From the IMG/VR virus record IMGVR_UViG_3300006099_000006, positions 22,393 to 86,392 of that record: DNA of 64,000 bases; one strand, 5' to 3'. Origin of the DNA: a virus. Taxonomy: Duplodnaviria; Heunggongvirae; Uroviricota; Caudoviricetes. This document shows positions 2,652 to 63,695 of this stretch, in pieces (the first letter of the stretch is position 1; every line of letters begins with the position of its first letter). The position numbers and the translations under genes were made by a program. The notes under the pieces are model-generated. The model had not been told where the DNA came from and did not search any database. It was given only the letters and a program-made list of their open reading frames with translations.

Positions 2652-2669
2652 TACAAGGAGGAATCGCGC

Positions 2670-2978
2670 ATGGAAAGTATTCTGAACTGGTCTGTGGTCA
2701 TCAGTATCGTCGGCGTTCTCGTGGTGCTGACCAACATCATCACCCAGGTTCTCAAGAAGGTTACCTGGGAGAAGCTTCCGACGAACATCCTGGTGGTCAT
2801 CATCTCGATGGTGCTGACCCTGGTGGCGTTCTTCGCCTACTGCCAGATCAAAGCGGTGGCCGTTGTGTGGTACATGGTCGTGGCGGCCGTCGTCCTGGGT
2901 TTTATGGTGGCGTATGCCGCTATGTTCGGATTCGACAAACTGAAAGAGGCCCTGACCCAGCTTGACGCGAGGAGGTAG
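2670..2978 (+). CDS. putative holin, 102 aa, 3 TM helices
   Basis: RBS AAGGAGG. Three predicted TM segments and a charged C-terminal tail. It sits in the lysis-like cluster. Confidence 0.5.
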   Translation: MESILNWSVVISIVGVLVVLTNIITQVLKKVTWEKLPTNILVVIISMVLTLVAFFAYCQIKAVAVVWYMVVAAVVLGFMVAYAAMFGFDKLKEALTQLDARR

Positions 2979-2981
2979 CCT

Positions 2982-3200
2982 ATGAACGAAAATCTCGGCA
3001 GCATCGAGCTCGTTGGTGTGGACAAGCAGTGCTACACAGATGGGAAGATGCGCTACAAACGCGAGTACCAGGGGCTCAGTCAGGACTTTGATAAGCTCCC
3101 CGTCAGCGACGATATGGCGGCCGGGAGTAGCTGTCTGTTCCTCGACAATGGCACTTACGCCCAGTATCATGCTGGGACGAAGAAGTGGTACCTGATTTAA
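2982..3200 (+). CDS. hypothetical small protein, 72 aa
   Basis: RBS GAGGAGG. Small protein in the tail-end/lysis region (XkdX-like position). Confidence 0.45.
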   Translation: MNENLGSIELVGVDKQCYTDGKMRYKREYQGLSQDFDKLPVSDDMAAGSSCLFLDNGTYAQYHAGTKKWYLI

Positions 3201-3213
3201 GGGAGGCGGTTGC

Positions 3214-3489
3214 ATGACAGGCGATCAGGCGTATGCCGTCCTGAAGGGACTTATCAAATCAACTCTTGCCGGAGCCGGCGCACTGAAAGGCGAGGATGGT
3301 AAGTCCGCTTATCAGATCGCTGTGGAGCTGGGCTTCGTCGGTACAGAGGAAGAGTGGATCGCCTCTCTTAAGGGAAAAGACGGCGGCCCCGCAGAGGGGA
3401 GCTATCTGAAAATCGAGGTCATGGATCGCGGTGAGTATGAGGCACTCCTCACCAAGGACCCGAATACCCTCTACATGCTTCGGGGCTAA
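3214..3489 (+). CDS. tail-fibre-motif protein, 91 aa. Contains a GKSAYQIAVELGFVGTEEEWIASLKGKDG collagen/tail-fibre C-terminal motif.
   Basis: The motif SAYxIAVxxGFxGTExEWxxSLKG recurs in phage tail fibre and BppU-like proteins. A strong terminator follows. Confidence 0.5.
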   Translation: MTGDQAYAVLKGLIKSTLAGAGALKGEDGKSAYQIAVELGFVGTEEEWIASLKGKDGGPAEGSYLKIEVMDRGEYEALLTKDPNTLYMLRG

Positions 3490-5137: not shown

Positions 5138-6373
5138 CTATTTTATTTTTTCGATTTCCTGTTTCAACCACTCAAATTCGCGTTGGGTATAGACCTTTTC
5201 GGTGATGTCCGAAATCTTGTGACCGACCATGTACTTGATGGCGTACTCGTCTACGCCGGCTTTTTTGCAGGCTGTGACAAAGTGTTTTCTACCATCATGG
5301 GGACGATGCTCTGGATTTAGTTTCAGCTCATCCCGAACCATACCAAAACCTCTCTGGTATCGTGGGTAGGTCATCATCGTAGGCTTGCCACTTCTGCCAT
5401 CCGTGCAGTTGAAGAGATACTTACTGCCAAGTACGACAGCCTCTTTATATTTACGCTCGATGAGATGCCGTATCTTCGAGTGGATGGGAACGACCCGATC
5501 CATACCGGCATCAGTCTTGATACCGCCTTTGAACGTCCAGTTCTCAAGGTCGATATTCTCCAGCTCCAGCAAGCCGAGTTCTTGAGGGCGCCATCCCGAG
5601 TAGCATTGGATCAGCATGACATCTACAAATCGCTTGTCATCGACATGGAACCAGAGCTGTTCCATCTCTTCTTCGGTGAATGGGATGTGTTCCTGCTTCA
5701 CGGTCTGGATCTCTTTGATAGTTTCCTCGGTGAGATTGAACGTCCGAGAGTAGTTCCGATCGACCAACTCATACTCTAAAGCATAGTCCAGCATGAGATT
5801 GAAAAGAGATTTGATTTTGTTCTTCATGGATGCGCTGGGGCGCTGCTCTTTTCCTCTAACTTTGGCCGTACCCTCTTCCATACAGCCTTTCACATGACGG
5901 GCCCGGACATCCATCACCCGCATATCATAGACAGCCGAACAATAGGCCCAAGCCGATGTAACAGCTCGAATGCTGCCATCCGCTTTAAGGGTCTTGAAAT
6001 ACTCTTCTGACCATTTGTCGTAAAGCTCCCTAACTGTAATGGACGGCTCCAAATCATACGGATTTTTGTTGTACTCTACGAGAGCGGCGTAAGCGTCATT
6101 GTAAGTAGGGAAATAAGATTCCGGTTTCAGAGGCTTACAAATAGGCCGCCCTTCTGGGGTCTTTCCAACCGTAACCATCGCCCGAAAAGGGTTTCGGAGG
6201 TTACGGTTCTTTATTTCACTGATTTGACCAAAGCCATTGGGGAGGCGCCTTCGTTTGTTGCTCTTAACACGGGGTTTTCGTTTTACAGTGGGCTGCATCG
6301 GGTAGCCACAATGAGGGCAGGCCGTAGCCTTATCGCTAACTTGGAGTTCGCATTCAGGGCATTTTATTAACAT
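5138..6373 (-). CDS. int: tyrosine recombinase/integrase, 411 aa, with N-terminal zinc ribbon
   Basis: C-terminal catalytic region HRPHDGRKH...GHKISDITEKVYTQRE carries the R..H..R..Y signature. N-terminal motif CPECE-x11-CPHCG. Confidence 0.9.
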   Translation of the reverse strand: MLIKCPECELQVSDKATACPHCGYPMQPTVKRKPRVKSNKRRRLPNGFGQISEIKNRNLRNPFRAMVTVGKTPEGRPICKPLKPESYFPTYNDAYAALVEYNKNPYDLEPSITVRELYDKWSEEYFKTLKADGSIRAVTSAWAYCSAVYDMRVMDVRARHVKGCMEEGTAKVRGKEQRPSASMKNKIKSLFNLMLDYALEYELVDRNYSRTFNLTEETIKEIQTVKQEHIPFTEEEMEQLWFHVDDKRFVDVMLIQCYSGWRPQELGLLELENIDLENWTFKGGIKTDAGMDRVVPIHSKIRHLIERKYKEAVVLGSKYLFNCTDGRSGKPTMMTYPRYQRGFGMVRDELKLNPEHRPHDGRKHFVTACKKAGVDEYAIKYMVGHKISDITEKVYTQREFEWLKQEIEKIK

Positions 6374-6579
6374 GGCGGTTCCTCGTCTTTCTTTTCAAGA
6401 GTCTTAATCGGAAGCCTTTCGATCTTATCCACTATGCGTCCAAGTTTTTGAATGTTCCAGACAATCCCGGCAAATTTCAAAATGCCTATGACCTGCTGGT
6501 TTTTGTTATGCTCTTTTACACCCCCTTCTTCGGTATAGACCTTATGCAGAAAGTCTTTTGGGTTCACATGTTTCTTCAT
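6367..6579 (-). CDS. small protein, 70 aa, upstream of int (excisionase or regulator candidate)
   Basis: RBS AAAGGAG 8 nt upstream. Overlaps the int start by 7 nt. This is an internal start of track ORF 6367-6810. Confidence 0.45.
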   Translation of the reverse strand: MKKHVNPKDFLHKVYTEEGGVKEHNKNQQVIGILKFAGIVWNIQKLGRIVDKIERLPIKTLEKKDEEPPC

Positions 6580-6634
6580 CGAATAGCTCCTTTCGCAGGT
6601 TTGGCACCTCCTTTTATGAAGGAGGTTGACTACC

Positions 6635-6847
6635 ATGAAAATAGACAAAAAGTTAATGAACGAGGTTGAAGAGTTGTGGGTTGGCCACGAGGAGGCATTA
6701 ACGCACTTCGGACAAGTATGTGTCGCGGCAGCAAAAGCTGGGCACGATTGCAAAGTGCGAAGACATTTGCGTCTGGGTATGGTTGTAGCCACTGCGGCAA
6801 CTATCATCATTACATGCTGTTTAGATTTGATGAGCGAAACTTACTAA
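6635..6847 (+). CDS. hypothetical protein, 70 aa, divergent from the int operon
   Basis: RBS GAAGGAGG 9 nt upstream of the ATG. The track start at 6626 is a TTG. Confidence 0.45.
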   Translation: MKIDKKLMNEVEELWVGHEEALTHFGQVCVAAAKAGHDCKVRRHLRLGMVVATAATIIITCCLDLMSETY

Positions 6848-6954
6848 AACGGGAGAGGCTCGCGGAAACGCGGGCTCTTTCTTTTATTTTTCCCGTTTAT
6901 TTTGCTTTTCCCGCTATTTCCCTTTGTTTCGCCCTAATAATCATATATGATAGT

Positions 6955-8736: not shown

Positions 8737-8971
8737 GGTGAAATCTAAGGAGCATGAAATCACGGAGAAGGGGTGTGTTCGCAGCACCTCTTTTCTTTTC
8801 GCGATTTTTACAAATCGTATTATGGAGAGGAAAAAGAATACCATCGGGTATGAAAGTGAAGAGGCTAAACGTGTGAGTATAAAATCTTTGCGCACATTAG
8901 ATGTCTACACGGAAAGTCGTCTCTCTTTATTTTTCGCCAAATACTCAACGGCCTTTATGGAGGTGATACTT

Positions 8972-9166
8972 GTGGAGACCAAGAAAATTCTTAGCACGAT
9001 TGGAACGTTCGTTATTGTAGGGGCAGTATCAACAGCAGGAGCTGCATTATGGACGAACGTTTTAGATGACAAACTTAAATTGGTTAAAGCGAAGAAAACA
9101 CATTCCAAATCAGACAAAGTAATTGTTGTTGATTTCAAGAAAGCAAGGAGGGACATGAGCCGCTAA
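8972..9166 (+). CDS. array gene 3, 64 aa, membrane protein (GTG start)
   Basis: CCTTTATGGAGGTGATACTT then GTG; one TM helix. An alternative start is the ATG at 8957 inside the box. Confidence 0.45.
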   Translation: METKKILSTIGTFVIVGAVSTAGAALWTNVLDDKLKLVKAKKTHSKSDKVIVVDFKKARRDMSR

Positions 9167-9190
9167 CACAGCGGCTCTCTCTTTTATATT
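9158..9190 (+). terminator. intrinsic terminator GAGCCGC-TAACACA-GCGGCTC followed by a T-run
   Basis: The same stem and loop family recurs at 10205 and 14345. Confidence 0.6.
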
Positions 9191-9230
9191 TTCCGCATAA
9201 AACTCCACGTCCTTTATGGAGGTGAAAGTA

Positions 9231-9506
9231 ATGAGACAAGTCATTCTTTATGGAATTTCTGGAGCAAGTAGGGCCTATACAGTTCTGAATTACTTCTGTA
9301 TCTATGAGGAATTCGTATCGATCAGCACTATCTTAGGGGAAGCGAGGCGACTTCGGATGAGAAATCCGGATATCGAGCACGTTTACGCAATAGATAATCG
9401 ACACGGACTCCGTCGTGATTACAAGGAGAGCATGAAACGGAATAGTATTGAGAGCCATTACATTTTCAAGGATATTCTGGAAAGAGAAGGTATGCGAATT
9501 ATTTAA
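9231..9506 (+). CDS. array gene 4, hypothetical, 91 aa
   Basis: TTCCGCA-N-CCTTTATGGAGGTGAAAGTA then ATG. Confidence 0.55.
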   Translation: MRQVILYGISGASRAYTVLNYFCIYEEFVSISTILGEARRLRMRNPDIEHVYAIDNRHGLRRDYKESMKRNSIESHYIFKDILEREGMRII

Positions 9507-9607
9507 CTACCGAGGAGGGTCCCGGCAGGGACTTTTCCTCTTTCCGCAGGAATGGCAGTTTCCTTTATGAGAGGCTTAGGCTTCATCTGTTATAAGGAGT
9601 GGAAACT

Positions 9608-14408: not shown

Positions 14409-14735
14409 ATGAGATTTGACAGCAAAAAGGTATTCAAGTTTGCAGGAGAAGTTAGCGGTTGTGTCGTCATGGGAATTGTTTCAGCGGCAACGCAGACGCT
14501 TTGGTACAGAATCGCAGAACCCAAGATACTTAATGCTATGGACAAAAATGAGGCAAAGCGAAAGCGGCCAATAGGTTTTAGGGGGGGGCCTAACAGGGGC
14601 TCTTCCCTTTTGCGCGAATTTAACAACATCCTTTATGGAAAGGTGAACATATGCGAGACGGTATGTTCTGAAAAAGGTGTTGCCCTTGAAGGTTTAGCTG
14701 ACGGCTATCGAGGTACGGAGCAACTTAATGGTTAA
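14409..14735 (+). CDS. array gene, membrane protein. The C-terminus probably read-through caused by a G8 tract.
   Basis: Box TATTATGGAGGTGATCGCT then ATG. The frame runs through the non-coding repeat copy B. One extra G would restore a TAA at the position homologous to the stop of gene 7665. Confidence 0.4.
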   Translation: MRFDSKKVFKFAGEVSGCVVMGIVSAATQTLWYRIAEPKILNAMDKNEAKRKRPIGFRGGPNRGSSLLREFNNILYGKVNICETVCSEKGVALEGLADGYRGTEQLNG

Positions 14736-14798
14736 ACGGCGAGCCGCCTGTCTTTCTTTTGTTCTCGCAGATTCTGCAAATTCCTTTATGGAGAGGAA
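14590..14798 (+). repeat. 210-bp direct repeat, copy B
   Basis: Near-identical to 7942-8151. The hairpin stem GAGCCC is replaced by a G8 run at 14582-14589. Confidence 0.7.
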
Positions 14799-14950
14799 GA
14801 ACCTGAGAAGGATACGAAATGCGTCTTTAGGCCAACCGAGCGCCCTTGAAAAGGGACTGAGAAGTTACGAAATGCGCCCTAAAGCCAACCGAATGTTCAA
14901 CCTCTCTAATGTTTTCACCTTCCGCAGATTTTGCAAATCGTATTATGGAG

Positions 14951-15023
14951 AGGAAGTTAGCTCAGTTGGTAGAGCGACGGGTGAAATTCCCGTAGGTCAT
15001 CGGTTCGAGTCCGATACAGCCTC
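14951..15023 (+). tRNA. tRNA-like gene with a canonical D-arm and T-arm but a non-canonical anticodon loop and acceptor stem
   Basis: D-arm is TAGCTCAGTTGGTAGAGC and T-arm is ATCGGTTCGAGTCCGAT. The anticodon stem ACGGG/CCCGT carries loop TGAAATT, which lacks U33. The acceptor stem pairs at 5 of 7 positions. It is preceded by the TTTTGCAAATCGTATTATGGAGAGG box. Confidence 0.45.
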
Positions 15024-15050
15024 TCTAAATTTTTTTTGAGAAGGGATATA

Positions 15051-22781: not shown

Positions 22782-25700
22782 ATGTTAGACTTCTTGATGA
22801 TTGCAACGCGCAGCGGTAAACGCGGTATCATCGAGATCTATCCCAAGTTTATCATCAAGAAAAGCAACGACCTCATGATAAGAGGCGGCGATTTCTATGC
22901 CATTTGGATTGAGGAACGGGGATTATGGTCGACTGATGAACAGGATGCGGTCGACTTGATCGACCGTGAACTGGACCGTTACGCCGAAGAAAACCGCAAG
23001 CGTTTTGATGACAACATTCGCGTTCTGCACATGTGGGACGCTGAGACCGGCATGATCGACACCTGGCATCGCTACTGCCAAAAGCAGATGAAAGACCAGT
23101 TCCATATGCTCGACGAGAAGTTGATCTTTGCCAACACCAAGACCGGTAAGCGAGACTATGCCAGCAAATCTCTGGATTATCCTTTGGAAAAAGGGGATAC
23201 GCCGGCGTGGGATCGTCTTATCGGTACTTTATATTCTCCCGAGGAGCGTCACAAGATTGAATGGTGCATCGGAGCCATCGTCACCGGAGATTCCAAACGA
23301 CTGCAAAAGTTTATGGTGTTTTACGGAGCGGTTGGGACGGGTAAGAGTACCATCATCAACGTGATACAGCAGCTCTTTGAGGGATACTACACCAGCTTTA
23401 ATGCCAAGGATCTCGGGTCTTCCAGTAATGCATTCGCACTGGAGGCATTCCGTTCCAATCCGTTGGTGGCGATTCAGCATGACGGCGATCTTTCACGCAT
23501 TGAGGATAACACCCGCATCAACAGCTTGGTGTCCCATGAGATGATGACCGTCAACGAGAAGTTCCGATCTGCTTACTCCAACCGGTTTAAGGCGTTCCTT
23601 ATCATGGGCACCAATAAGCCTGTGAAGATTACGGACGCTAAATCCGGTATTATCCGCAGACTGATTGATGTGTCGCCAACTGGCAACAAAGTGCCGCCCA
23701 ACGAGTATCGAACTCTCACCAAGCAAATTCCCTTCGAGCTCGGCGGCATCGCCTATCACTGCCAGGAAGTATATTTGGAAGATCCGGATTACTATGACGA
23801 TTACATCCCCATCTCAATGCTCGGGGCCTCAAACGACTTCTACAACTTTGTCGTGGATTCTTACCATGTGTTCAAGCGGGAGGACGGCGTTTCTCTGAAG
23901 TCTGCTTGGGAGATGTATAAGACCTATTGCGATGACGCGAAGGTTTTGTATCCCTTGTCCAGAATGATATTTAAGGAGGAGTTGCGAAACTACTTCCGGG
24001 AGTATGAGGAACGATTCAACATGGACGATGGAACTCGTGTGAGAAGCTACTATCACGGGTTTCGGACGGAGAAGTTTGAAGAACAGACCCCCGATGAAAA
24101 GGAGGAACCGAAGAAAAAGTCAACCCCGCAGCCTACGATTGCCTTTGCAGAGGGGCAGTCGTCCATTTTTGATGCCCAGTGTGCAAATTGTCCGGCGCAA
24201 TATGCGGGCGAAGAAGGCACACCGCAAAGGAAATGGGAGCGGGTTCGCTCTAAACTCTCCTCGTTGGACACTTCCCGGCTCCATTATGTGAAACTTCCGG
24301 AGAATCACATCGTCATCGACTTTGATATTCCGGATGAACAGGGTAATAAGTCCTTTGAGCGGAATTTGGTCGAGGCCAGTAAGTGGCCAGCGACCTATGC
24401 AGAGGTGAGTAAAAGCGGCTGCGGAATTCATCTGCACTACATCTATTCCGGAGATGCGACGAAGCTCAGCCGGATCTATGATGACCACATCGAGATCAAG
24501 GTCTTCACTGGCAACAGCTCACTGCGCCGGAAGCTTTCAAAATGCAACAACCTACCTATCGCTACGATAAGCTCTGGGTTACCGTTGAAAGGAGAAAACA
24601 GCGTGGTAAACACCAAAGTGGTTCAAAGCGAGAAAGGGCTTAGACTCCAGATCAAACGCAATCTCAACAAGGAGATCCATCCGGCTACTAAGCCCAGCAT
24701 CGACTTTATCCATAAAATTTTGACGGATGCGTATGAAAGCGGCATGACCTACGATGTGACCGACATGCGTAACGCCGTCCTGGCCTTTGCGGCCAACAGT
24801 ACCAACCAAGCGGAATACTGCATCAAGTTGGTGAACAAGATGCCGTTCAAATCCGCCGAAGACGGGTCGGCAGTGAAAAACGACGATGCGAAATTGGTGT
24901 TCTACGACGTGGAGGTATTCCCGAACCTCTTCCTGGTGAACTGGAAGATCGAGGGCCCCAACCAAACCGTCGTGAGGATGATTAACCCGAAGCCCCAGGA
25001 GATCGAGGAGCTGATGAAGTTCCGCCTCGTCGGGTTCAACTGCCGCCGGTACGACAATCATATCCTCTACGCCCGTCTGATGGGCTACACGGAGGAACAG
25101 CTGTACAATCTGTCCCAAAAGATCATCAGCAGTGAGAAGAAGGCCAAAAGTAACAACTGCTTCTTTGGGGAGGCGTATAACGTCTCTTATACGGACGTAT
25201 ACGACTTCTGCTCCAAAAAGCAAAGCCTGAAGAAGTGGGAAATCGAGCTTGGGCTTCACCATCAGGAGTTAGGGCTTCCCTGGGATCAGCCGGTTCCCGA
25301 ACACCTTTGGCAGAAGGTCGCGGAGTATTGCGACAACGATGTTATTGCAACTGAGGCCGTGTTCAATGCCCGCAAGGCCGACTTTGTTGCCCGTGAGATT
25401 CTGGCCGACGTGGCCGGCATGACGGTAAACGACACCACCAACACCTTGACCACCAAAATTATATTTGGCGGGAACAAGAAACCCCAGGATCAGTTCAACT
25501 ACCGCGATATGGGGGATACAACTCAGATTTACGATCCCGACCGGGATCTGCCGTTTGAGATGGGCCCGAAGGAATTCGACGAGTTCACAGCCTTTGACAA
25601 GAAGGGCCGTCCCATCTTCCCTGGGTACAAGTTCGAGAATGGGAAGTCCATCTATCGTGGCGAGGAAGTTGGCGAGGGCGGTTATGTCTACGCCGAGCCG

Positions 25701-26900
25701 GGAATGTACGGGAACATTGCTCTGCTGGACATCGCCAGTATGCATCCGTCGAGCATCATCGCGGAGATCCTGTTTGGACCCGAATACACGAAACGGTTCC
25801 AGGAGATCCGTGACGCTCGTGTGGCCATCAAACACAAAGACTTTGAGAAGGCCAAGAAGATGCTGAATGGCGCGTTGGCAAAGTACCTAACCGATGAGGG
25901 CGCTGCTGCCGACTTGGCACAGGCGCTGAAGATCGCCATCAACTCTGTGTATGGTCTGACTTCGGCCGGCTTTGACAACCCCTTCCGGGACAATCGGAAC
26001 AAAGACAATATTGTCGCCAAGCGCGGAGCCCTGTTCATGGTCAACCTCAAACACGAGGTTCAGAAACGGGGCTTTACTGTTGCCCATATCAAGACCGACT
26101 CCATCAAGATTCCCGATGCCACGCCGGAGATCATTAAGTTCGTCATGGACTACGGCGAGAAGTACGGCTACACCTTTGAACATGAGGCCACCTATGACCG
26201 GATGTGCCTTGTGAACAACGCGGTCTACATCGCCAAGTACAAGGACAGCAAGCACGCCGGTGAATGGACTGCCACGGGCACGCAGTTCCAGATCCCGTAT
26301 GTGTTCAAGAAACTGTTCAGCCACGAGGAGATCACTTTCGAGGACATGTGCGAGACCAAGTCTGTAACCAGTGCTCTTTATCTGGACATGAATGAAAATC
26401 TGCCCAATGTTTCCGAATACGAAAAAGAGTATAAGGAACTCGCCGGATATTTGTCCACAACTTCTGGAGATGGTGGTCAATATGTCAGATTCGATGAGCT
26501 TGAGAAGCTTATTGGGCGGGGGCATAACTATGTCTTCGTGGGAAAGGTTGGTCAGTTCTGTCCGATGAAACCGGGCCACAATGGCGGTCTGCTCTTAAGA
26601 GAGGTAACTGACAAGAAAACCGGCGCAAAGAGCTATGCCGCGGCCACGGGGGCCAAAGGGTATCGTTGGCTGGAATCCGAGATGGTCAAGCATCTGGAGA
26701 AGGAGGATGGCATCGACCGGAGCTACTACGACGCTATGGTTGATGAGGCGGTCCATGATATTTCTCAGTTCGGAGATTTTGAATGGTTCGTATCTGACGA
26801 TCCCTACGTCCAGCCCAACCCCTCGAACGATACCCCGCCTTGGGAGACGCCCGGTGAGCCTTGGCAGGGGGAAGCGGCTGTGGCTTTCGATGCGAGGTGA
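22782..26900 (+). CDS. tripartite replicase, 1372 aa: N-terminal SF3/P4-D5-type NTPase, central AEP PrimPol, C-terminal family-B DNA polymerase with 3'-5' exonuclease
   Basis: Walker A motif GAVGTGKST. PrimPol motifs VIDFDIPDE and SKSGCGIHLHYIY. Exo I FYDVEVFPN, Exo II GFNCRRYD, Exo III YCDNDV. PolB motif A DIASMHPS, motif B KIAINSVYG, motif C KTDS. Confidence 0.85.
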   Translation: MLDFLMIATRSGKRGIIEIYPKFIIKKSNDLMIRGGDFYAIWIEERGLWSTDEQDAVDLIDRELDRYAEENRKRFDDNIRVLHMWDAETGMIDTWHRYCQKQMKDQFHMLDEKLIFANTKTGKRDYASKSLDYPLEKGDTPAWDRLIGTLYSPEERHKIEWCIGAIVTGDSKRLQKFMVFYGAVGTGKSTIINVIQQLFEGYYTSFNAKDLGSSSNAFALEAFRSNPLVAIQHDGDLSRIEDNTRINSLVSHEMMTVNEKFRSAYSNRFKAFLIMGTNKPVKITDAKSGIIRRLIDVSPTGNKVPPNEYRTLTKQIPFELGGIAYHCQEVYLEDPDYYDDYIPISMLGASNDFYNFVVDSYHVFKREDGVSLKSAWEMYKTYCDDAKVLYPLSRMIFKEELRNYFREYEERFNMDDGTRVRSYYHGFRTEKFEEQTPDEKEEPKKKSTPQPTIAFAEGQSSIFDAQCANCPAQYAGEEGTPQRKWERVRSKLSSLDTSRLHYVKLPENHIVIDFDIPDEQGNKSFERNLVEASKWPATYAEVSKSGCGIHLHYIYSGDATKLSRIYDDHIEIKVFTGNSSLRRKLSKCNNLPIATISSGLPLKGENSVVNTKVVQSEKGLRLQIKRNLNKEIHPATKPSIDFIHKILTDAYESGMTYDVTDMRNAVLAFAANSTNQAEYCIKLVNKMPFKSAEDGSAVKNDDAKLVFYDVEVFPNLFLVNWKIEGPNQTVVRMINPKPQEIEELMKFRLVGFNCRRYDNHILYARLMGYTEEQLYNLSQKIISSEKKAKSNNCFFGEAYNVSYTDVYDFCSKKQSLKKWEIELGLHHQELGLPWDQPVPEHLWQKVAEYCDNDVIATEAVFNARKADFVAREILADVAGMTVNDTTNTLTTKIIFGGNKKPQDQFNYRDMGDTTQIYDPDRDLPFEMGPKEFDEFTAFDKKGRPIFPGYKFENGKSIYRGEEVGEGGYVYAEPGMYGNIALLDIASMHPSSIIAEILFGPEYTKRFQEIRDARVAIKHKDFEKAKKMLNGALAKYLTDEGAAADLAQALKIAINSVYGLTSAGFDNPFRDNRNKDNIVAKRGALFMVNLKHEVQKRGFTVAHIKTDSIKIPDATPEIIKFVMDYGEKYGYTFEHEATYDRMCLVNNAVYIAKYKDSKHAGEWTATGTQFQIPYVFKKLFSHEEITFEDMCETKSVTSALYLDMNENLPNVSEYEKEYKELAGYLSTTSGDGGQYVRFDELEKLIGRGHNYVFVGKVGQFCPMKPGHNGGLLLREVTDKKTGAKSYAAATGAKGYRWLESEMVKHLEKEDGIDRSYYDAMVDEAVHDISQFGDFEWFVSDDPYVQPNPSNDTPPWETPGEPWQGEAAVAFDAR

Positions 26901-40882: not shown

Positions 40883-41932
40883 ATGGAACTGAAACAATTC
40901 TGCAAGGAAAACAACATTCCGCTGGAAAAGCTGGGTGACATCGGTGAGGTGAGCGACGGCTTTCACACCTTCAACTCCCTCTACCACCAGCGGCTGATTC
41001 TGTCTGCCGTCCTGGTCAACGCCTTCCCGCATCTAGCTTGGAAGTCCCACAAGCACCATGATGGTGAGCCCCCGTTCGGTGGCGGCTGGTTTATCGTCGG
41101 TATCAATGCGCCGGAGGGCCAGTACACCTACCACTACGAGGACAAGAACTGGGATATTTTCCGCTGCGAGGAGCTGGAGAAGGCTCCCAAGTTTGATGGG
41201 CATACAGATAAGGATGTCGAGCGGTTACTGTCCCTGGTACCCGATCCCGAAAAGGATACGATGTCCAGCTGGGCCCACCATGAAGTCGAACTGGCTATTC
41301 AGGCCGAGAAGGAAGCCTGCAAGGGTACGGATGACTGGAAGTACGGGGCCGGCTGTTACGAGAGTGCACTGCGGGCTTTCCAGTGTCTCGCCCGTGACAA
41401 CGATGATGATATCAGCATCCAGATGACCAAGAGCATTCTCAACCGTCTGGTTGATGGTCGGACGCTTACTCCCATTGAGGACACGCCCGATATTTGGTCT
41501 GATATTTCGGAGGTCTTCTCCAAGGGGGAGAAGAGCAAGCAATACCAGTGTAAGCGGATGTCCTCTCTGTTCAAGAAGATTGCCGAAGACGGCACCGTAT
41601 CCTTCAGTGACACCAATCGCGTCTCCTGCGTCAACATTGAGAACCCCGATGCATCTTTCATCAAAGGCTTTGCTACCCGGATGATCGAAAGCATCTTCCC
41701 CATCAAGATGCCGTATCTCCCTTCCGGCAAGAAGTTCAAAGTCGTGCAGGATGAGTTCCTGGTCGATCCCAAGAACGGCGACTACGACACTGTCGGTTAT
41801 CTCCATATCCTGACGCCGGATGGTAAGAAGGTGGAACTGAACCGCTTCTTCAAGGAAGTTGACGGTCAGATGGTTCAGATCGAGAAGGCCGAGTTCGATG
41901 AGCGGAAGACAAAGAAGGTGGATAAAAAATGA
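40883..41932 (+). CDS. hypothetical, 349 aa
   Basis: RBS AAAAAGGAGAAAAA. Confidence 0.6.
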   Translation: MELKQFCKENNIPLEKLGDIGEVSDGFHTFNSLYHQRLILSAVLVNAFPHLAWKSHKHHDGEPPFGGGWFIVGINAPEGQYTYHYEDKNWDIFRCEELEKAPKFDGHTDKDVERLLSLVPDPEKDTMSSWAHHEVELAIQAEKEACKGTDDWKYGAGCYESALRAFQCLARDNDDDISIQMTKSILNRLVDGRTLTPIEDTPDIWSDISEVFSKGEKSKQYQCKRMSSLFKKIAEDGTVSFSDTNRVSCVNIENPDASFIKGFATRMIESIFPIKMPYLPSGKKFKVVQDEFLVDPKNGDYDTVGYLHILTPDGKKVELNRFFKEVDGQMVQIEKAEFDERKTKKVDKK

Positions 41933-42643: not shown

Positions 42644-43005
42644 ATGATATTTACAAGTTACTTCGCTAAGCTGAGTAAACTTCCTTCGGATGTTGTCCTA
42701 TCTCTATCTGTGGCAAAGCGCCTGACTGGTACACGGGGTTACAGTATAAAAAGCTGGCCCCGAAGTACCAGTTTTTCATGGAGTGGAAACGGACGCATGA
42801 CAACGCTTACTATATCGAGCACTTCGAGCGGGAAGTGTTGGACAAGTTGGATGCTAATACGGTGTTTGCGGAACTTTCCGCACTGTCTGGCGGTCAAACC
42901 TTTGCTCTGATCTGCTACGAACGGCCAAACGACTTCTGTCACCGGCATCTCGTGGCTGAATGGTTCTGTAAGAACGGCTACCGCTGCGAAGAAATTGATA
43001 TTTGA
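42644..43005 (+). pseudogene. DUF488-family gene with an internal frameshift near 42690
   Basis: N-terminus MIFTSYFAKLSKLPSDVV is in frame 2. The remainder, PISICGKAPDWYTGLQYKKLAPKY...LICYERPNDFCHRHLVAEWF, is in frame 1. A single-nt indel in the stretch GTTGTCCTATC would join them. Confidence 0.5.
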
Positions 43006-43019
43006 AAAGGAGAAAAAAC

Positions 43020-43910
43020 ATGGACCTTAAAAGATTCGACAGCAGTGAAGGCAATGTTTGTAAGTATGTCTTCACGAAAGCTGACATGGTTGCCGAAGCG
43101 GTTCTGTACCGCTACGAGGACTTCTACCAGCGCACAGTCATTTGCTGCTCCACCATGAGCGGCTGTCCGGTCGGATGCAAGTTCTGTGGCACCGGAAACA
43201 AGTTTGTGCGGAACCTGACCTCTGCCGAGATCGTTGAGCAGATTCAGGCGGTGCTTCGGGATAAGAGCATTGAGGATGTGGATAAGGTTGGTAAACGATT
43301 CCAGATCATGTTCATGAGCATGGGTGAACCGCTCTTGAACTGGGATCAGGTAGAGAGCGCAATCAATACGCTCCATGACCTCTATCCGAATGCGGAGCTT
43401 TTATTGTCCACCATCGCTCCCAACAACCATGACGCGTGGGATCGGCTGATTCAGCTCTCCAAGAAAATTCCCAAGGTTGGGTTGCAGTTTTCTATTCATA
43501 AGTCCACCGATGCCGTCCGTGATATTCTGATTCCTTACAAGGAGAAGCTGCCCCTCAAGGAAATCCGGGACATCGGCATTGTTTGGTGGCGAGAGACCGG
43601 CAGACATCCCTATCTGAACTACTGTATCGACGGCACCAACAATACGGCTGAAGACGCTGAGCGGCTGATGGCTCTCTTCTCTCCGGTCGTGTTCAATTTC
43701 ACTTTCAGCGTCGTATGCTCCGCAAATGAGAGCATGAAAGACGCCGGCTTCCGTGAATTGGATACGGTGCGACTTTTTGAGCAAAAGTTTGGCTCTAACG
43801 GCTACAACACCCGGATATTTAATCCGGATGGCCAAGACGACATCGGCGGAGGTTGTGGTCAACTCTGGTACGTTCAGAAATGGATGAAAGAAAGGAGTGC
43901 TTCCAAGTGA
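43020..43910 (+). CDS. RlmN/Cfr-family radical SAM methyltransferase-like protein, 296 aa. It lacks the N-terminal accessory domain.
   Basis: The CCSTMSGCPVGCKFCGTG segment carries the CxxxCxxC motif. NLTSAEIVEQI...FMSMGEPLLNWDQV follows. The C-terminal GGGCGQLW carries the conserved methyl-carrying Cys, as in the RlmN motif AACGQL. Confidence 0.7.
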   Translation: MDLKRFDSSEGNVCKYVFTKADMVAEAVLYRYEDFYQRTVICCSTMSGCPVGCKFCGTGNKFVRNLTSAEIVEQIQAVLRDKSIEDVDKVGKRFQIMFMSMGEPLLNWDQVESAINTLHDLYPNAELLLSTIAPNNHDAWDRLIQLSKKIPKVGLQFSIHKSTDAVRDILIPYKEKLPLKEIRDIGIVWWRETGRHPYLNYCIDGTNNTAEDAERLMALFSPVVFNFTFSVVCSANESMKDAGFRELDTVRLFEQKFGSNGYNTRIFNPDGQDDIGGGCGQLWYVQKWMKERSASK

Positions 43911-44164
43911 ATAAAAAACTGCTTGCGGCCATCCTCGCTCTGGGGATGGCTCTTTCTCTGGCTGGGTGCGGAAACCGCCAGATGATTGACCTCACCTACA
44001 CCTACAAGTACGCCATCATCAGCCTGCCCAACGGGGAAATCGTCGAGGGCAAGGTTGATTCCTGGAAGGACTTTGAGGATGGAGACCAGCTCCAGATCAC
44101 CGTTGACGGTGTGACCTATCTTGTCCATGCTACGGACGCCGTCTTGATAACGGAGGAGAGGTAA
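43907..44164 (+). CDS. lipoprotein, 85 aa (GTG start)
   Basis: RBS AAAGGAG; lipobox LSLAGC. Confidence 0.55.
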   Translation: MNKKLLAAILALGMALSLAGCGNRQMIDLTYTYKYAIISLPNGEIVEGKVDSWKDFEDGDQLQITVDGVTYLVHATDAVLITEER

Positions 44165-44166
44165 CT

Positions 44167-44436
44167 ATGAACATGACCATCGAATGGGGTACCAGACTCT
44201 GTACTGTTAAAGGCGAGTCTGGATATTTTCACACCTGGGAGCACTACTCAAAGCCACTCTCGGCAAGTCCACTCGTTGGCGGAGAACCTGCTGGAGTGTT
44301 TAGCCAGGTCTTCGGAATCGTGGAGTTCAAGGATGGCATCCGGCGAGTAGACCCGACTACCATCGTATTCTGTGATGAAGAAAACGCGGCGCTCAAAGTA
44401 TTTGAAGAAAAGGAGAAAACGCATGATTCTGATTGA
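44167..44436 (+). CDS. hypothetical, 89 aa
   Basis: RBS GAGGAGAGG. Confidence 0.55.
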   Translation: MNMTIEWGTRLCTVKGESGYFHTWEHYSKPLSASPLVGGEPAGVFSQVFGIVEFKDGIRRVDPTTIVFCDEENAALKVFEEKEKTHDSD

Positions 44437-45385
44437 GAATGCCCAGATCATGGGCTTGGAACCCACTATCCGCGGAATGCGGAATCCGATGAACAGCTGG
44501 GCCAAGAGCGACAGCGGGCCTTGCCTTACTCACGGTCCTGACCACTGCAAGGACTGCCCTTACCCCGAAGGGTCTTGCTCTGCTAATGTAGAGGATCTCA
44601 GCAATTATATTATCATCGGCCCCAACGACCTTGACCTGATGCTGCGGCTGGCCAGGGCCGGCTCGGTGGACGGCAAGTTCCGCCGGATGATTGTGGTGTA
44701 CGTCGATATCACCGCTCCGCTCTACTGGTGGAAGGAGTTCGATACCTATAAAGTGGGTACGGTCGCCAACTCCTGCTCTACCATGCACAAGATTCACGCC
44801 AAGGAGTTCACGCTGGAGGATTTCAGCCATGAGCATCTTGTAAAGCGTTCCTTACGAAAACTCACAGAAAAAATCGAAGAATTAAACTTCTGGCGGAACA
44901 TTTACTTAAATGGTGGGGAAGTTGATAACGAAGATGGAACAATCCGGATATTCGCGCCCAAGGAAAAAGACGCTTGGTGGCAAATGATTCAGCTCCTCCC
45001 CTCCAGCTACAACCAGAAGCGGACGGTCATGCTGAACTACGAGGTCCTGTCCAACATCTACCAGCACCGGCGTAACCACAAGCTGGACGAGTGGCGGGAG
45101 CTCTGCAAGTGGATCGAGGAGCTGCCGTACAGCGAGGTCATCACCTGCAATGTCATTGAAGGTAAAAAGGCCGCGTTGAAAACCTTTGTCGATGACACTG
45201 ACGCAACGCCTGTTCACGGCGGTGCTTTTGACAAGCCGACTGATGCTGAGAAAAAAGAAATTCAGGAACTCAAAGCAGCCATTAACAAACTGCGGGAGCA
45301 GAAATGGAGTGAAGAGCAAATAACGAAGTTGCTCCAGAGGGCGGCCGATCCTGCCAACCCTAATGGAATAGACCATGAAGGATAA
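44423..45385 (+). CDS. hypothetical, 320 aa, with weak ThyX-like resemblance (ITAP...W region) but no RHR...S..R signature
   Basis: RBS AAAAGGAGAAAACGC. Confidence 0.5.
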   Translation: MILIENAQIMGLEPTIRGMRNPMNSWAKSDSGPCLTHGPDHCKDCPYPEGSCSANVEDLSNYIIIGPNDLDLMLRLARAGSVDGKFRRMIVVYVDITAPLYWWKEFDTYKVGTVANSCSTMHKIHAKEFTLEDFSHEHLVKRSLRKLTEKIEELNFWRNIYLNGGEVDNEDGTIRIFAPKEKDAWWQMIQLLPSSYNQKRTVMLNYEVLSNIYQHRRNHKLDEWRELCKWIEELPYSEVITCNVIEGKKAALKTFVDDTDATPVHGGAFDKPTDAEKKEIQELKAAINKLREQKWSEEQITKLLQRAADPANPNGIDHEG

Positions 45386-60983: not shown

Positions 60984-63695
60984 ATGGATCTAATTCAGGA
61001 CGACATCCTGATGCACTATGGCGTCAAGCGGCGTTCGGGGCGCTATCCGTGGGGTTCCGGCGAAAACCCCTACCAGCACGGCGGGGACTTCCTCAGCCGG
61101 GTCGAGGAGCTTCAGTCTCAGGGAAAGAGTGAGAAGGAGATCGCCGACGAGCTCAAGATGTCAACCACGGATCTGCGGATGCAGGTTCGGGTGGCGAAGC
61201 ATGAGCGGCGCATGGTCCTGGCCGACAGGGCGAAGTCTTTGCGGGAAGAGGGCAAGACTCTGGACGAGATCGCCAAGATTATGGGTTACAATAACGATTC
61301 TTCGGTTCGGGCCCTTCTCAACGAGAACACCGCCTCCAACAAGAACAAGGCCTGGCAGACTGCGGAGCGGTTGAAGCAGGAGCTTGCGACGAAAGGTGCC
61401 CTTGACGTGGGAACCGGAGCCGAGCGGGAGCTTGGAGTTTCCAGTGGCGTCCTTCAGGAGGCGCTCTTCATTCTGGAGACTGAGGGTTATAACCGGTTTG
61501 GCGTTGGCGTTCCCCAGGTCAACAACCCGAAGCAGCGCACCATTACGCCTGTTATATCCGTTCCCGACATCGACCAGCGGCAGGTCTATCAGGACCTCGC
61601 TTTGGTCAAGGCGGTGGGTGAATATCACAGCACTGATGGCGGCGAATCCTGGGACAAGCGGGAATATCCGTCCAGCATCAGCTCTGGCCGGGTGAAGATC
61701 CGTTATGGGGATGAGGGCGGTTCCGCGAAAGACGGTGTTATCGAGATCCGTCGCGGCGTCGCCGACCTGGATTTGGGTGCGTCCCACTATGCACAGGTCC
61801 GTATCATGGTGGACGGAACCCATTACCTCAAAGGGATGGCCATGTATTCTGATGACATTCCCGATGGGGTAGACATTATATTTAACACCAACAAGCATTC
61901 CGGCACGCCCAAGTTGGACGTCCTGAAGAAAATCCAGGATGACCCGGACAACCCCTTTGGGGCCTTCATCAAGGCGAATGGGCAGAGCTACTACCCCGAC
62001 CCCAATGGCAAATACATCGACCCCGTCACCGGGGAAAGGCGTTCGTTGTCGGCGATCAACAAATTAAAAGAAGAAGGCGACTGGGATAAGATGAGTAAAA
62101 ACTTGTCTTCCCAGTTTCTTTCTAAGCAGCCCATCAAGCTGATCCAGACCCAGTTGGATTTGACCTACGCCGACGCAGAGGATGAGTTCGCCGAGATCTG
62201 CGCCCTGACCAATCCCACGGTCAAGAAGAAGCTGTTGATGGACTTCGCCGACGAGTGCGATTCTGCCGTCGTTCACCTGAAAGCCGCGGCCCTTCCCCGC
62301 CAGAGCACCCAAGTTATATTGCCGCTCACGGCGATGAAGGAGACCGAGATCTACGCCCCCAACTACAGGGACGGCGAAAAGGTGGCTTTGGTTCGATACC
62401 CCCATGGCGGGACGTTTGAGATCCCCATTCTGACCGTCAACAACAAAAACAAGGCGGCCATCGCAATTATGGGCAAGAATGCCCGGGATGCTGTCGGTAT
62501 CAACGCCAAAGTGGCTGAGCGGCTCTCCGGAGCCGACTTCGACGGCGACCAGGTCGTGGTCATTCCTACCGGTGGGAGGGTGAACATCAAATCGACCCCC
62601 GCCCTTGACGCATTGAAAACTTTTGACGCTAAAGTTGAATACTCAACCGAAGGGAAGACCGGTATCCGGCTCCTCTCGAAAGAGGCTACCCAGATCGAGA
62701 TGGGAAAGATCTCTAACCTCATCACCGATATGACGTTGAAGGGGGCCCCCGATGGCGACATTATCAAGGCCGTCAAGCATAGCATGGTGGTTATCGACGC
62801 CGCCAAGCACAAGCTGGACTACAAGCGGTCGGAGCAGGAGAACGACATCGCCACCCTGCGGAAGAAGTGGCAGGGCTATGTGGACGAGACTGGCAAGGTC
62901 AGGGGCGGTGCTTCTACCCTGCTGTCCCGCCGTAAGCAGGATGTGGAGGTTCCCGAACGCCAGGGCAGCGGCCGTATCGACAAGCAGACCGGCAAGGTGG
63001 TCTACAAGGAGTCTGGCCGTACTTACCTCGACGCGAAGGGACGGGAAGTTCAGGCCACAACCAAAATCAAACTACTGGACGCCACCGACGACATTCGGAC
63101 ATTGTCTTCTGGCACCTTGGTCGAGGACACTTATGCCGACTACGCCAACAAGATGAAGGTGCTTGCCAACAGGGCTCGGCTTGAGTACGTTGCGACGCCG
63201 ACTTTGGCCCGTTCCGCCAGCGCCGCTAAAACCTATCAGCCGGAAGTTGATCGTCTGACTGCCGCGCTTCGGGCCGCGCAGCTCAACGCTCCTCGTGAGC
63301 GGGAAGCCCAGCGGATCGCCAATGCTCGCGTCAGGGCGAAGATCGACGCCAATAATGTCACCGACAAAGACGAAATTTCTAAAATTCGTCGGGCCGCAAT
63401 CAGCGACGCTCGTGTTGAGACCGGCGCAAGCGGCAAAGGAACTCGAATTACGATCAGCGACGGCGAATGGGAAGCGATTCAGGCTGGCGCGATTTCTGAC
63501 ACAACGCTGAAAGAGATTCTGCGCTATGCCGACCCCGACATCGTTCGGGAACGTGCTACGCCGAGAGCTCAAACCGAGATTTCCGATGCTCGGAAAAACA
63601 GGATCAGAGCAATGGCTGGTTCCTACACGAACGTCGAGATCGCGGAAGCGTTGGGTCTTTCGCCTTCTGCTGTGTCGAGAATCCTCAATGAATGA
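60984..63695 (+). CDS. large multidomain protein, 903 aa, with a C-terminal sigma-70 region-4/LuxR-like HTH
   Basis: C-terminal TNVEIAEALGLSPSAVSRILNE; N-terminal GYPWGSGENP. No NTPase motif found. Confidence 0.7.
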   Translation: MDLIQDDILMHYGVKRRSGRYPWGSGENPYQHGGDFLSRVEELQSQGKSEKEIADELKMSTTDLRMQVRVAKHERRMVLADRAKSLREEGKTLDEIAKIMGYNNDSSVRALLNENTASNKNKAWQTAERLKQELATKGALDVGTGAERELGVSSGVLQEALFILETEGYNRFGVGVPQVNNPKQRTITPVISVPDIDQRQVYQDLALVKAVGEYHSTDGGESWDKREYPSSISSGRVKIRYGDEGGSAKDGVIEIRRGVADLDLGASHYAQVRIMVDGTHYLKGMAMYSDDIPDGVDIIFNTNKHSGTPKLDVLKKIQDDPDNPFGAFIKANGQSYYPDPNGKYIDPVTGERRSLSAINKLKEEGDWDKMSKNLSSQFLSKQPIKLIQTQLDLTYADAEDEFAEICALTNPTVKKKLLMDFADECDSAVVHLKAAALPRQSTQVILPLTAMKETEIYAPNYRDGEKVALVRYPHGGTFEIPILTVNNKNKAAIAIMGKNARDAVGINAKVAERLSGADFDGDQVVVIPTGGRVNIKSTPALDALKTFDAKVEYSTEGKTGIRLLSKEATQIEMGKISNLITDMTLKGAPDGDIIKAVKHSMVVIDAAKHKLDYKRSEQENDIATLRKKWQGYVDETGKVRGGASTLLSRRKQDVEVPERQGSGRIDKQTGKVVYKESGRTYLDAKGREVQATTKIKLLDATDDIRTLSSGTLVEDTYADYANKMKVLANRARLEYVATPTLARSASAAKTYQPEVDRLTAALRAAQLNAPREREAQRIANARVRAKIDANNVTDKDEISKIRRAAISDARVETGASGKGTRITISDGEWEAIQAGAISDTTLKEILRYADPDIVRERATPRAQTEISDARKNRIRAMAGSYTNVEIAEALGLSPSAVSRILNE

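Follow-up and report, generated by a model that had tools for sequence, protein, structure and literature searches.

The 64-kb stretch of phage DNA analysed here, which we call the window, carries at positions 43020..43910 (+) a gene for a 296-aa protein in which, very probably, the catalytic core of a class A radical SAM methylase of the RlmN/Cfr type is complete and which belongs to a separate, strongly conserved clade of phage, mobile and accessory enzymes. Relatives of this short protein (the rSAM protein hereafter) recur inside NAD+ salvage operons, and our preferred, though tentative, reading is that it is a cysteine-mediated C-methylase of an adenine nucleotide of the NAD/ADP-ribose type; gene neighbourhoods and a NUDIX fusion are what point to such a substrate rather than to rRNA or tRNA. 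Of the best known members of the superfamily, RlmN, as far as is known near-universal in bacteria, is a dual-specificity radical SAM methyltransferase that forms m2A2503 in 23S rRNA and m2A37 in tRNA, while Cfr is a 23S rRNA m8A2503 methyltransferase that gives PhLOPSA resistance. We know of no class A radical SAM methylase with a non-RNA substrate.

The rSAM gene runs from an ATG at 43020 to a TGA at 43908-43910, with a Shine-Dalgarno sequence, AAAGGAG (43007..43013, +), 7 nt 5' of the start codon. A program-made list of open reading frames opens the frame at a TTG at 43002, yielding a 302-aa form; since homologues are 292-298 aa long and span 96-98 % of that form, the ATG is favoured. All four motifs that had drawn a sequence-only reading to this gene (CPVGCKFC, NLTSAEIVEQI, GEPLL and CGQL) are found in it, and its description there as short and phage-borne holds as well, given its length, the integrase, replication genes and PHROG families of the window, and relatives on 298 IMG/VR viral contigs. 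The element, a phage or prophage of large size, has genes for an integrase, a DNA polymerase-primase, a ligase, NrdD and a YonO-like RNAP, along with many PHROG families; a megablast search with positions 38-50 kb of the window gave no match among deposited phages.

The protein consists of a beta-extension, a radical SAM core and a C-terminal cysteine loop, and the landmarks of catalysis are all in place. The [4Fe-4S] motif CPVGCKFC, C49-x3-C53-x2-C56, is encoded at 43164..43187 (+), as read from the motif and the alignment, and is followed by the R64-NLTSAEIVEQI motif and by M101-G-E-P (43320..43331, +), the SAM-binding 'GGE'-type motif seen as MGEPLL and located by alignment and hhalign. The codon at 43143..43145 (+) specifies Cys42, the equivalent of the resolving cysteine Cys118 of Escherichia coli RlmN and Cys105 of Cfr, and G276-GGCGQL (43845..43865, +) holds Cys279, the equivalent of the methyl carriers Cys355 of RlmN and Cys338 of Cfr; MAFFT and hhalign alike pair Cys279 and Cys42 with RlmN C355 and C118, and both mechanistic cysteines are kept in >90 % of the phage/mobile clade. 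Sequence searches matched the protein to Pfam Radical_SAM (PF04055, E = 2.8e-8), to the NCBIfam models for RlmN (TIGR00048, E = 6.7e-32) and Cfr (E = 1e-22 to 2e-24), and, in the PDB, to RlmN 6fz6 (E = 1.6e-21) and Cfr 9p0p (E = 6e-18). When a confident AF2 model (pLDDT 84, pTM 0.85) was searched with Foldseek, only RlmN and Cfr reached E <= 3e-13, the next structure being MiaB at 2e-4. Membership of the RlmN/Cfr superfamily, as the earlier reading had proposed, is thereby borne out, RlmN and Cfr being the sole strong relatives in both sequence and fold.

Superfamily membership does not extend to identity with either enzyme. Scores fall far below the cut-offs of every specific model: 110.8 bits against 290 for the RlmN equivalog TIGR00048, 69.2 against 633 for PRK11194, and, for the Cfr models NF000424, TIGR04432 and PRK14453, 86.6 against 530, 79.5 against 550 and 80.6 against 468 bits, respectively. 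Identity to RlmN and Cfr references is 24-29 %, compared with 48-53 % to homologues from cultured phages. In a neighbour-joining tree, 100/100 bootstraps place the rSAM clade apart from a grouping of canonical RlmN with Cfr, Cfr(C) and Cfr(D). Within that grouping the Cfr references form a single branch (100/100) nested with canonical RlmN, away from the clade of the query. Phylogenetic placement, suggested earlier as the check on this gene, thus put it neither within the RlmN housekeeping clade nor in some other radical SAM subfamily, but in a third, separate clade; as judged from these alignments and trees, the protein is orthologous to neither RlmN nor Cfr. The N-terminus differs too. Only 48 residues lie ahead of the cluster, where the references have 98-124 (109-124 in two RlmN references), and the hhalign match begins at RlmN residue 81 and covers RlmN 81-372 only; the HhH2 N-terminal domain, with which RlmN and Cfr hold on to RNA, is missing.

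That domain anchors Cfr to the H90-H92 junction of rRNA (PMC13001441), and the contact residues of the same published cryo-EM complex were mapped onto the rSAM protein by alignment (PMC13001441). The N-domain contacts of Cfr are wholly absent, and most of the Cfr residues in contact with A2503, U2504 and helix 90 that RlmN also keeps are replaced. Of the 26 non-cysteine Cfr contact positions about four are retained or similar, namely Y32 (Cfr Y97), G194 (as in many RlmN), R195 and Y198, while Cfr S103, S151, S153, R184, R185, S187, N288, R327, S328 and F330 are not conserved in the query. Numbered from E. coli RlmN to the query, and with MAFFT and hhalign in agreement, the swaps conserved in the clade are T116 to V40, N172 to Q95, R206 to A125, R207 to E/Q/A126, T209 to L128, N307 to T228, R344 to F267 and R347 to D/A270; the RNA-backbone contacts common to RlmN and Cfr (R206, R207, T209, T116, N307 and R344) have thus become conserved non-basic residues. 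Along with this loss of RNA-binding features goes a median pI of 6.0 versus 8.5. Four basic residues common to RlmN, Cfr and the rSAM protein persist (R38, R64, R167 and R195), and R265 might stand in for RlmN R344. For the beta-3 region, the register of a pairwise HMMER alignment was dropped in favour of that of MAFFT, which hhalign and the strand positions of the AF2 model support.

The genes around relatives of the rSAM gene point to a different setting. A survey of 142 loci, collapsed into 96 locus groups (53 viral, 43 genome) with NAD genes scored within 6-8 kb, found that NAD-metabolism genes make up 8 of the 12 neighbour families present in at least 5 groups: NAMPT (20 groups), PncA-like (13), NrtR (10), NMNAT-Nudix (7), NMNAT (6), NadE (6 + 6) and Prs (5). 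Such genes lie near the rSAM gene in 24 of the 96 groups (11 of 53 viral, 13 of 43 genome), among them groups with close relatives of the query (65-72 % identity), and in 23 of these 24 they are of at least two kinds and the operon encloses the rSAM gene, as in NAMPT-PncA-rSAM-NadE-NMNAT..NrtR, PncA-rSAM-NadE or NadA-rSAM-ADP-ribosylglycohydrolase. Their share of neighbours is 12.6 % at rank 1 and 0.7 % at rank >=7, a difference of about 18-fold; the published base rate of the NAD+ reconstitution pathway NARP2 in phages is about 1 %. A narrow NadV HMM had matched only 1 of 61 genome loci, and looser clustering showed it to be too narrow. In one member of the clade of the query, P0127, the rSAM part is fused to a NUDIX domain that is active-looking by sequence, its Nudix box being intact. 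The active-site signature is identical whether or not a member is NAD-embedded, and the query has it too. NAD+ salvage operons with an rSAM gene occur in phages, CPR bacteria, archaea and Bacillota.

The window itself has no NAD-salvage gene anywhere in its 64 kb. Directly upstream of the rSAM gene is a DUF488-N3a gene (42644..43005, +; stop at 43003-43005), frameshifted near 42690; relatives L001-L004 and L098 have an unbroken copy of 118 aa, and the gene is a conserved neighbour only in a close subgroup of gut-Bacillota phages. Two to three genes upstream, and syntenic in relatives, lies a gene for a protein combining WDGH with Tad3, a type I Thoeris inhibitor (40883..41932, +); Tad3 counters TIR/NAD-based defence (Thoeris). 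One relative has an ADP-ribosylglycohydrolase in the corresponding neighbourhood, which together with Tad3 speaks for the NAD link. Downstream, a small predicted lipoprotein with a signal peptide and a LAGC lipobox (43907..44164, +) starts at a GTG that overlaps the rSAM stop codon (GTGA), which suggests translational coupling of the two genes; the lipoprotein is not conserved among the loci of relatives. It is followed by a gene for a phrog_6721 protein of unassigned function (44423..45385, +), conserved in about 5 locus groups and 57 % identical to the product of positions 6099-6893 of L001; a ThyX-like assignment for it was discarded, as it had no Pfam or PDB sequence match. No fixed general partner emerged, the commonest neighbour under strict clustering occurring in just 8 of 55 groups, and DUF488-N3a, phrog_6721 and YAcAr, being confined to the close gut-Bacillota subgroup, were rejected in that role, as was the unconserved lipoprotein.

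The family as a whole is mobile and sparse. It was found in 124 of 185,579 species genomes, and its cultured carriers are phages of Salmonella, Vibrio, Stenotrophomonas and Aeromonas, with orthologues such as gp133 of Salmonella phage Arash and P0168 of Vibrio phage 496E54-1. Automatic annotation has given some members, that of Stenotrophomonas phage ANB28 for one, the label 'ribosomal RNA large subunit methyltransferase N'. PADLOC defence-system models gave no match to the rSAM protein, and no published description of the family was found in the literature on phage RlmN/Cfr-like proteins, NAD-linked radical SAM enzymes, DUF488, Tad3 and Salmonella phage Arash.

In the mechanism that we propose, a first SAM would methylate Cys279, as in RlmN and Cfr, and a second would be cleaved to a 5'-deoxyadenosyl radical that takes a hydrogen from the S-methyl group; the S-CH2 radical so formed would add to an electron-poor sp2 carbon, be it adenine C2 or C8 or one in a similar N-heteroaromatic ring, and Cys42 would resolve the crosslink to give a C-methyl product. 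The substrate would be a free adenine dinucleotide of the NAD+/ADP-ribose family, not canonically bound A2503 of 23S rRNA or A37 of tRNA. The enzyme would assist NAD+ salvage and, in phages, help to counter NAD-targeting immunity (Thoeris and other NADase systems), the methylated nucleotide being possibly one that immune NADases or TIR cyclases use poorly. Somewhat more doubtful is the full form of this proposal, according to which the family would represent the first class A radical SAM methylase acting on a small molecule, modifying the adenine (C2/C8), or perhaps the pyridinium ring, in NAD+, NaAD or ADP-ribose, and a fifth component of NAD+ salvage that makes, for example, a pool or signal precursor unusable by NADases or TIR cyclases. 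Several observations weigh against an NAD-type substrate: besides the window, 72 of the 96 groups have no NAD gene within 6-8 kb; four basic residues persist, with R265 as a possible replacement for R344; a slow enzyme that spends two SAM per turnover would be metabolically awkward if used stoichiometrically on an abundant metabolite; and adjacency may in part reflect shared ancestry or a shared location in a 'counter-defence island'.

The contexts of some relatives speak instead for RNA, and an RNA adenine C-methyltransferase, though somewhat less likely, is a serious alternative. Such an enzyme would act on host or phage tRNA (at an A37-like position), 23S rRNA or another RNA, with another recognition mode or a partner in place of HhH2, and would tune translation or shield RNA from defence nucleases. 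Every characterised homologue methylates RNA, the nearest folds are those of RlmN bound to tRNA (5hr7) and of Cfr, and the catalytic cysteines are retained together with R38, R64, R167 and R195. In 14 of 55 groups tRNA genes lie no more than 8 kb away, a weak sign in favour; the rSAM gene of phage ANB28 lies within a tRNA cluster, in L042 a Pnkp-like kinase/HD phosphatase and an RNA ligase stand on either side of it, and 6 groups have Rnl1 close by, all of which counts against NAD as well as for RNA; very high conservation over hosts of different domains would also suit a universal RNA target. Yet the RNA-anchoring HhH2 domain is lost, at least seven RNA-backbone or base contacts common to RlmN and Cfr have turned hydrophobic or acidic, and the pI is acidic. 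The neighbouring tRNAs, moreover, are those for Leu, Ser, Thr, Ile, Met and Cys, presumably outside the known m2A37 set, and it is NAD genes rather than RNA genes that dominate the neighbourhoods, with a NUDIX fusion besides.

It is improbable that the target is an adenine (deoxy)nucleotide (dATP, ATP, dAMP) or DNA, for instance in the making of a restriction-resistant phage genome. In the window and close relatives the rSAM gene does sit in a replication/nucleotide module (NrdD, ligase, dUTPase/DCD, MazG, FolD), the lost RNA-specific contacts fit a mononucleotide substrate, and P0203, from another short-form clade, is fused to an HD/HD_assoc dNTP-triphosphohydrolase-like domain; but P0203 belongs to a different clade with RlmN-like residues (RVTIST and SRG motifs), the neighbours that recur across the family are those of NAD salvage, not of dNTP or DNA modification, no DNA glycosylase, transferase or polymerase is a conserved partner, and a methyl group at adenine C2 or C8 would perturb base pairing. 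Hardly tenable, finally, is a Cfr- or RlmN-type 23S rRNA A2503 methyltransferase, whether a mobile PhLOPSA determinant or a duplicate of the host housekeeping function, since against superfamily membership, the conserved cysteine pair and two Cfr-like aromatics (Y32 for Cfr Y97, Y/F198 for Cfr Y252) stand scores 4-7-fold under the Cfr and RlmN cut-offs, a position outside both clades, the missing anchor to the H90-H92 junction with most A2503/U2504/H90 contacts lost, plasmids that hold only true cfr/rlmN, and the presence of the family in lytic phages that infect many kinds of host. The plasmid matches were to true cfr and rlmN only, at <=32 % identity and mostly with partial coverage, with no member of the family among them, which indicates that it does not travel with resistance genes on plasmids. 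A functional equivalence to RlmN or Cfr, raised by the sequence-only reading, therefore finds no support in the sub-cut-off scores, the 100/100 split and the replaced contact residues, and a mobile Cfr-type resistance role appears unlikely from the third clade, those residues, the NAD-type neighbourhoods and the NUDIX fusion.

If the NAD link is functional, the 'methylene transfer' chemistry of RlmN and Cfr would extend from RNA to nucleotide cofactors, the salvage operons of phages and of cellular carriers (CPR bacteria, archaea, Bacillota) would contain an unrecognised enzymatic step, and the conflict of phages and bacteria over NAD+ would have a new move. There is a practical side as well: resistance-gene screens could flag members of the family as Cfr-like, and without experimental proof these belong neither among the rRNA methyltransferases nor among the mobile linezolid/phenicol resistance genes.

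Set beside known systems, the rSAM protein shares with RlmN the CX3CX2C and GEP motifs, the beta-extension, the C-terminal CGQL loop, the equivalents of C118 and C355, R114, the RNLT motif and R241-like residues, as well as the fold (5hr7, 3rfa and 6fz6 among the structures; Foldseek E = 5e-15 to 2e-13, TMq 0.72-0.75). It differs from RlmN in having no HhH2 domain, in its 24 % identity, separate clade, acidic pI and replaced RNA contacts, and in its family's sparse, mobile occurrence in NAD operons, not in housekeeping contexts. With Cfr, Cfr(C) and Cfr(D) it has in common the superfamily, the predicted mechanism, 27-28 % identity and aromatics at Cfr Y97 and Y252, whereas it lacks HhH2 and most Cfr-RNA contacts, stands outside the Cfr clade and scores 80-87 bits where 468-550 are required. 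Phage NAD+ reconstitution is the third comparison: NARP2 consists of NadV and NatV, and NARP1 has an added Macro phosphatase (bioRxiv 10.64898/2026.01.28.702374). A radical SAM enzyme in NARP-type pathways is the subject of no report in the searchable literature, and the window, which differs from these systems in its lack of NAD-salvage genes, is one where the role of the rSAM protein is predicted from the neighbourhoods of its relatives. Those relatives are embedded in NadV/NatV/Prs or PncA/NAMPT/NMNAT/NadE operons, and the extra genes attached to NARP1 operons (bioRxiv 10.64898/2026.01.28.702374) offer a parallel to this embedding.

The open reading frame of the radical SAM (rSAM) gene exists exactly where the sequence-only reading placed it, on the plus strand at 43020-43910 (ATG at 43020, TGA stop at 43908-43910, 296 aa), with AAAGGAG 7 nt upstream of the ATG and the upstream gene's stop codon at 43003-43005; homologue lengths of 292-298 aa confirm this start. 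Every motif quoted by that reading is also present (C49-PVG-C53-KF-C56, RNLTSAEIVEQI, MGEPLL and GGGCGQL). Radical_SAM is the sole Pfam match, and among NCBIfam models RlmN TIGR00048 ranks first (E = 6.7e-32), ahead of RlmN/RNA-methyltransferase and Cfr models, all with scores far under the curated cut-offs (110.8 vs 290 for RlmN, 80-87 vs 468-550 for Cfr) and with matches starting at model position ~66-94. Significant sequence matches among solved structures are limited to RlmN and Cfr, and the confident AF2 model (pLDDT 84, pTM 0.85) matches only RlmN-type (6fz6, 5hr7) and Cfr (9p0p) structures at E <= 3e-13, the next fold being MiaB (E = 2e-4). The five cysteines on which the mechanism of E. 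coli RlmN depends (C118, C125, C129, C132, C355) each have an aligned counterpart in the phage protein (C42, C49, C53, C56, C279), so that nothing of the catalytic apparatus of a class A radical SAM methylase is missing. Assignment to RlmN/Cfr holds for catalytic core, fold and cysteines but not for the enzymes proper, from which domain content, tree position, contact residues and pI separate it: these data show an intact RlmN/Cfr-type core in a distinct mobile clade. No PADLOC defence-system model matches the protein.

The family is large, comprising hundreds of ~295-aa metagenome proteins, with relatives on 298 IMG/VR viral contigs, mostly of 60-430 kb. Full-length homologues with 46-59 % identity occur in Salmonella phage Arash, Stenotrophomonas phages ANB28 and BUCTxx99, Xanthomonas phage JGB6, Aeromonas phage Ahp1, several Vibrio phages and a 462-kb huge phage. 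The gene is present in only 124 of 185,579 species-representative genomes, scattered among Bacillota, Pseudomonadota, Actinomycetota, Bacteroidota, Saccharibacteria and archaea, and a plasmid search returned true cfr and rlmN genes only. We found no description of the family in the literature, and members in the database records seen bear generic or automatic names. GenBank labels the ANB28 orthologue (5986-6945) 'ribosomal RNA large subunit methyltransferase N' and the same region of JGB6 and BUCTxx99 'prohibitin family protein'; both look like automatic mislabels.

A survey of gene neighbours ties the clade statistically to genes of NAD+ salvage. Among 142 loci, pooled into 96 groups at 80 % identity that are not fully phylogenetically independent, and with ORFs from a simple greedy caller, NAD-metabolism genes account for eight of the 12 neighbour families present in at least five groups: NAMPT/NAPRTase (20 groups, median distance <1 kb from the rSAM gene), PncA-like isochorismatase (13), NrtR (10), NMNAT-Nudix (7), NMNAT (6), NadE (6 + 6) and Prs-like (5). 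NAD genes occur in 24 of the 96 groups, at least two kinds in 23 of these, and the rSAM gene usually lies within the operon (NAMPT-PncA-rSAM-NadE-NMNAT..NrtR, PncA-rSAM-NadE, PncA-rSAM-NrtR, rSAM-NatV-NadV, Prs-NadV-rSAM, NadA-rSAM-ADP-ribosylglycohydrolase). Gene rank from the rSAM gene served as an internal control: NAD genes make up 12.6 % of genes in rank 1, then 9.1 % (rank 2), 7.5 % (rank 3), ~2 % (ranks 4-6) and 0.7 % from rank 7 onwards. The association holds in the viral set (11/53) and in the genome set (13/43, often MAG contigs that could be mis-binned phages), at loci with ordinary cellular neighbours and in relatives 65-72 % identical to the window's protein, and the groups concerned are spread over the family tree. 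By comparison, canonical NAD salvage (NARP2) is reported for ~1 % of phages (bioRxiv 10.64898/2026.01.28.702374). An active-site signature (Y30, Y32, R38, V40, Q95, M97, A125, L128, Q156, T228, R265, F267) is identical in NAD-embedded and all other groups, the window's protein included, so that the family looks functionally uniform and the evidence from NAD context can be carried over to the window's gene. One NAD operon (locus L105) has a second, 233-aa Radical_SAM-like gene at 8824-9522 (weak match, E = 1.8e-5), in the order PncA-NAMPT-rSAM-NadE-[233-aa gene]-NMNAT..NrtR.

The window itself, a large phage or prophage, has no NAD-salvage genes. It encodes an integrase (5138-6373, minus strand), a fused primase-DNA polymerase of 1372 aa (22782-26900, plus; phrog_4210), a helicase/methylase, an ATP-dependent ligase, NrdD, a YonO-like single-subunit RNA polymerase of 903 aa (60984-63695, plus; phrog_4291, annotated 'RNA-dependent RNA polymerase') and many PHROG-only families; the two polymerases point to a large phage, SPbeta-like or similar, that carries its own machinery for transcription and replication. 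Around the integrase, GC content is 0.52-0.56 over 1-4 kb and drops to 0.43-0.46 over 4-10 kb, a possible prophage edge or attachment region. At 14950-15025 (plus) ARAGORN predicts a tRNA-Phe whose anticodon, AAA, is unusual; this prediction overlaps an ORF (14728-15039) and could be spurious.

The closest genome locus (92 % protein identity) lies in an Oscillospiraceae genome from a gut catalogue. Window and close relatives share the order WDGH-Tad3, small ORFs, DUF488-N3a, rSAM, small ORF, phrog_6721, YAcAr, dUTPase or MazG, a synteny not kept family-wide. The 349-aa WDGH-Tad3 protein (40883-41932, plus) matches WDGH (E = 3e-39) and the type I Thoeris inhibitor Tad3 (E = 1e-23), which blocks the NAD-processing TIR protein of Thoeris; its gene is syntenic in relatives, one locus (L025) has a Tad3 protein directly 3' of the rSAM gene, and a relative has an ADP-ribosylglycohydrolase at the corresponding position. 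Directly upstream of the rSAM gene, the DUF488-N3a gene (42644-43005, plus) is broken by a frameshift near 42690 (residues 1-18 in one frame, 16-117 in another) that may reflect a sequencing error, decay into a pseudogene or programmed frameshifting; four relatives (L001-L004) and the 92 %-identical locus have the gene as one uninterrupted ORF of 118 aa, and its C-terminal part in the window weakly matches the PADLOC candidate families PDC-M19A and PDC-M45C. Downstream, a small predicted lipoprotein (VNKKLLAAILALGMALSLAGC...; 43907-44164, plus) has a GTG start overlapping the rSAM stop (GTGA) and its own ribosome-binding site, GAAAGGAG; relatives have an unrelated 74-aa ORF in its place. The phrog_6721 gene (44423-45385, plus; E = 2e-82), whose product has no Pfam or PDB sequence match, is conserved in the close gut-phage subgroup as the second gene 3' of rSAM; in relatives, a YAcAr (SLOG-type) gene comes next.

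Short RlmN-like cores also occur in fusions: with a NUDIX domain, Nudix box intact, in a single ORF of the query clade (P0127); with DUF7448 in a 420-aa protein 76 % identical to the window's (P0081); with an HD/HD_assoc dNTP-triphosphohydrolase-like domain in a 759-aa protein of a different short clade with RlmN-like residues (P0203); and, at 1720-3357 of locus L116, with a 248-aa C-terminal region that has a Rossmann-methyltransferase-like VVEIAPGF motif and no Pfam match. By the standard two-cysteine methylene-transfer mechanism, the enzyme would methylate an sp2 carbon in an adenine-type ring. We tentatively regard an NAD+/ADP-ribose-type dinucleotide as the most likely substrate class; the enzyme would then assist NAD+ salvage and, in phages, counter-defence. 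An RNA target recognised by a new mode is a serious rival, only a little less likely, favoured by homology, by tRNA genes close to rSAM in 14 of 55 groups and by RNA-repair genes among the neighbours. Modification of dATP or a DNA precursor is a minor and improbable rival.

Methylation of A2503 in the manner of Cfr or RlmN, or a resistance role, as the sequence-only reading proposed, is very improbable. The protein is neither RlmN nor Cfr. A neighbour-joining tree (102 sequences, 277 columns; all our trees are distance-based) was computed with RlmN of E. coli and of Oscillospiraceae, with Cfr, Cfr(C) and Cfr(D), and with representatives drawn from a library of 1.8 billion proteins; 100/100 bootstraps set the query clade apart from canonical RlmN+Cfr. 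The RlmN/Cfr references are 24-29 % identical to the protein, and cultured-phage proteins 48-53 %. The N-terminal HhH2 domain is missing, with 48 residues before the cluster vs 98-124 in reference proteins, and a profile-profile alignment (hhalign) places the entire protein on RlmN residues 81-372 (probability 100 %, E = 2e-74). When the reported contacts of Cfr with A2503, U2504 and helix 90 (PMC13001441) were transferred onto the alignment, positions conserved in both Cfr and RlmN proved changed in the phage clade (E. coli RlmN numbering first: T116 to V40, N172 to Q95, V174 to M97, R206 to A125, R207 to E/Q/A126, T209 to L128, A231 to Q156, N307 to T228, R344 to F267, R347 to D/A270), the substitutes being mostly non-basic and conserved within the clade. 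MAFFT and hhalign give the identical register; a different HMMER pairwise register for the beta-3 region conflicts with the AF2 strand positions. Median pI is 6.0 in clade members, which are acidic, vs 8.5 in canonical enzymes. The clade is thus shown to lack the RNA anchor and to have a remodelled substrate surface. Compared with known systems, the protein resembles RlmN in fold and in all five mechanistic cysteines but is without its HhH2 domain, and it resembles Cfr in fold, whereas the Cfr contacts to rRNA are largely replaced in its clade.
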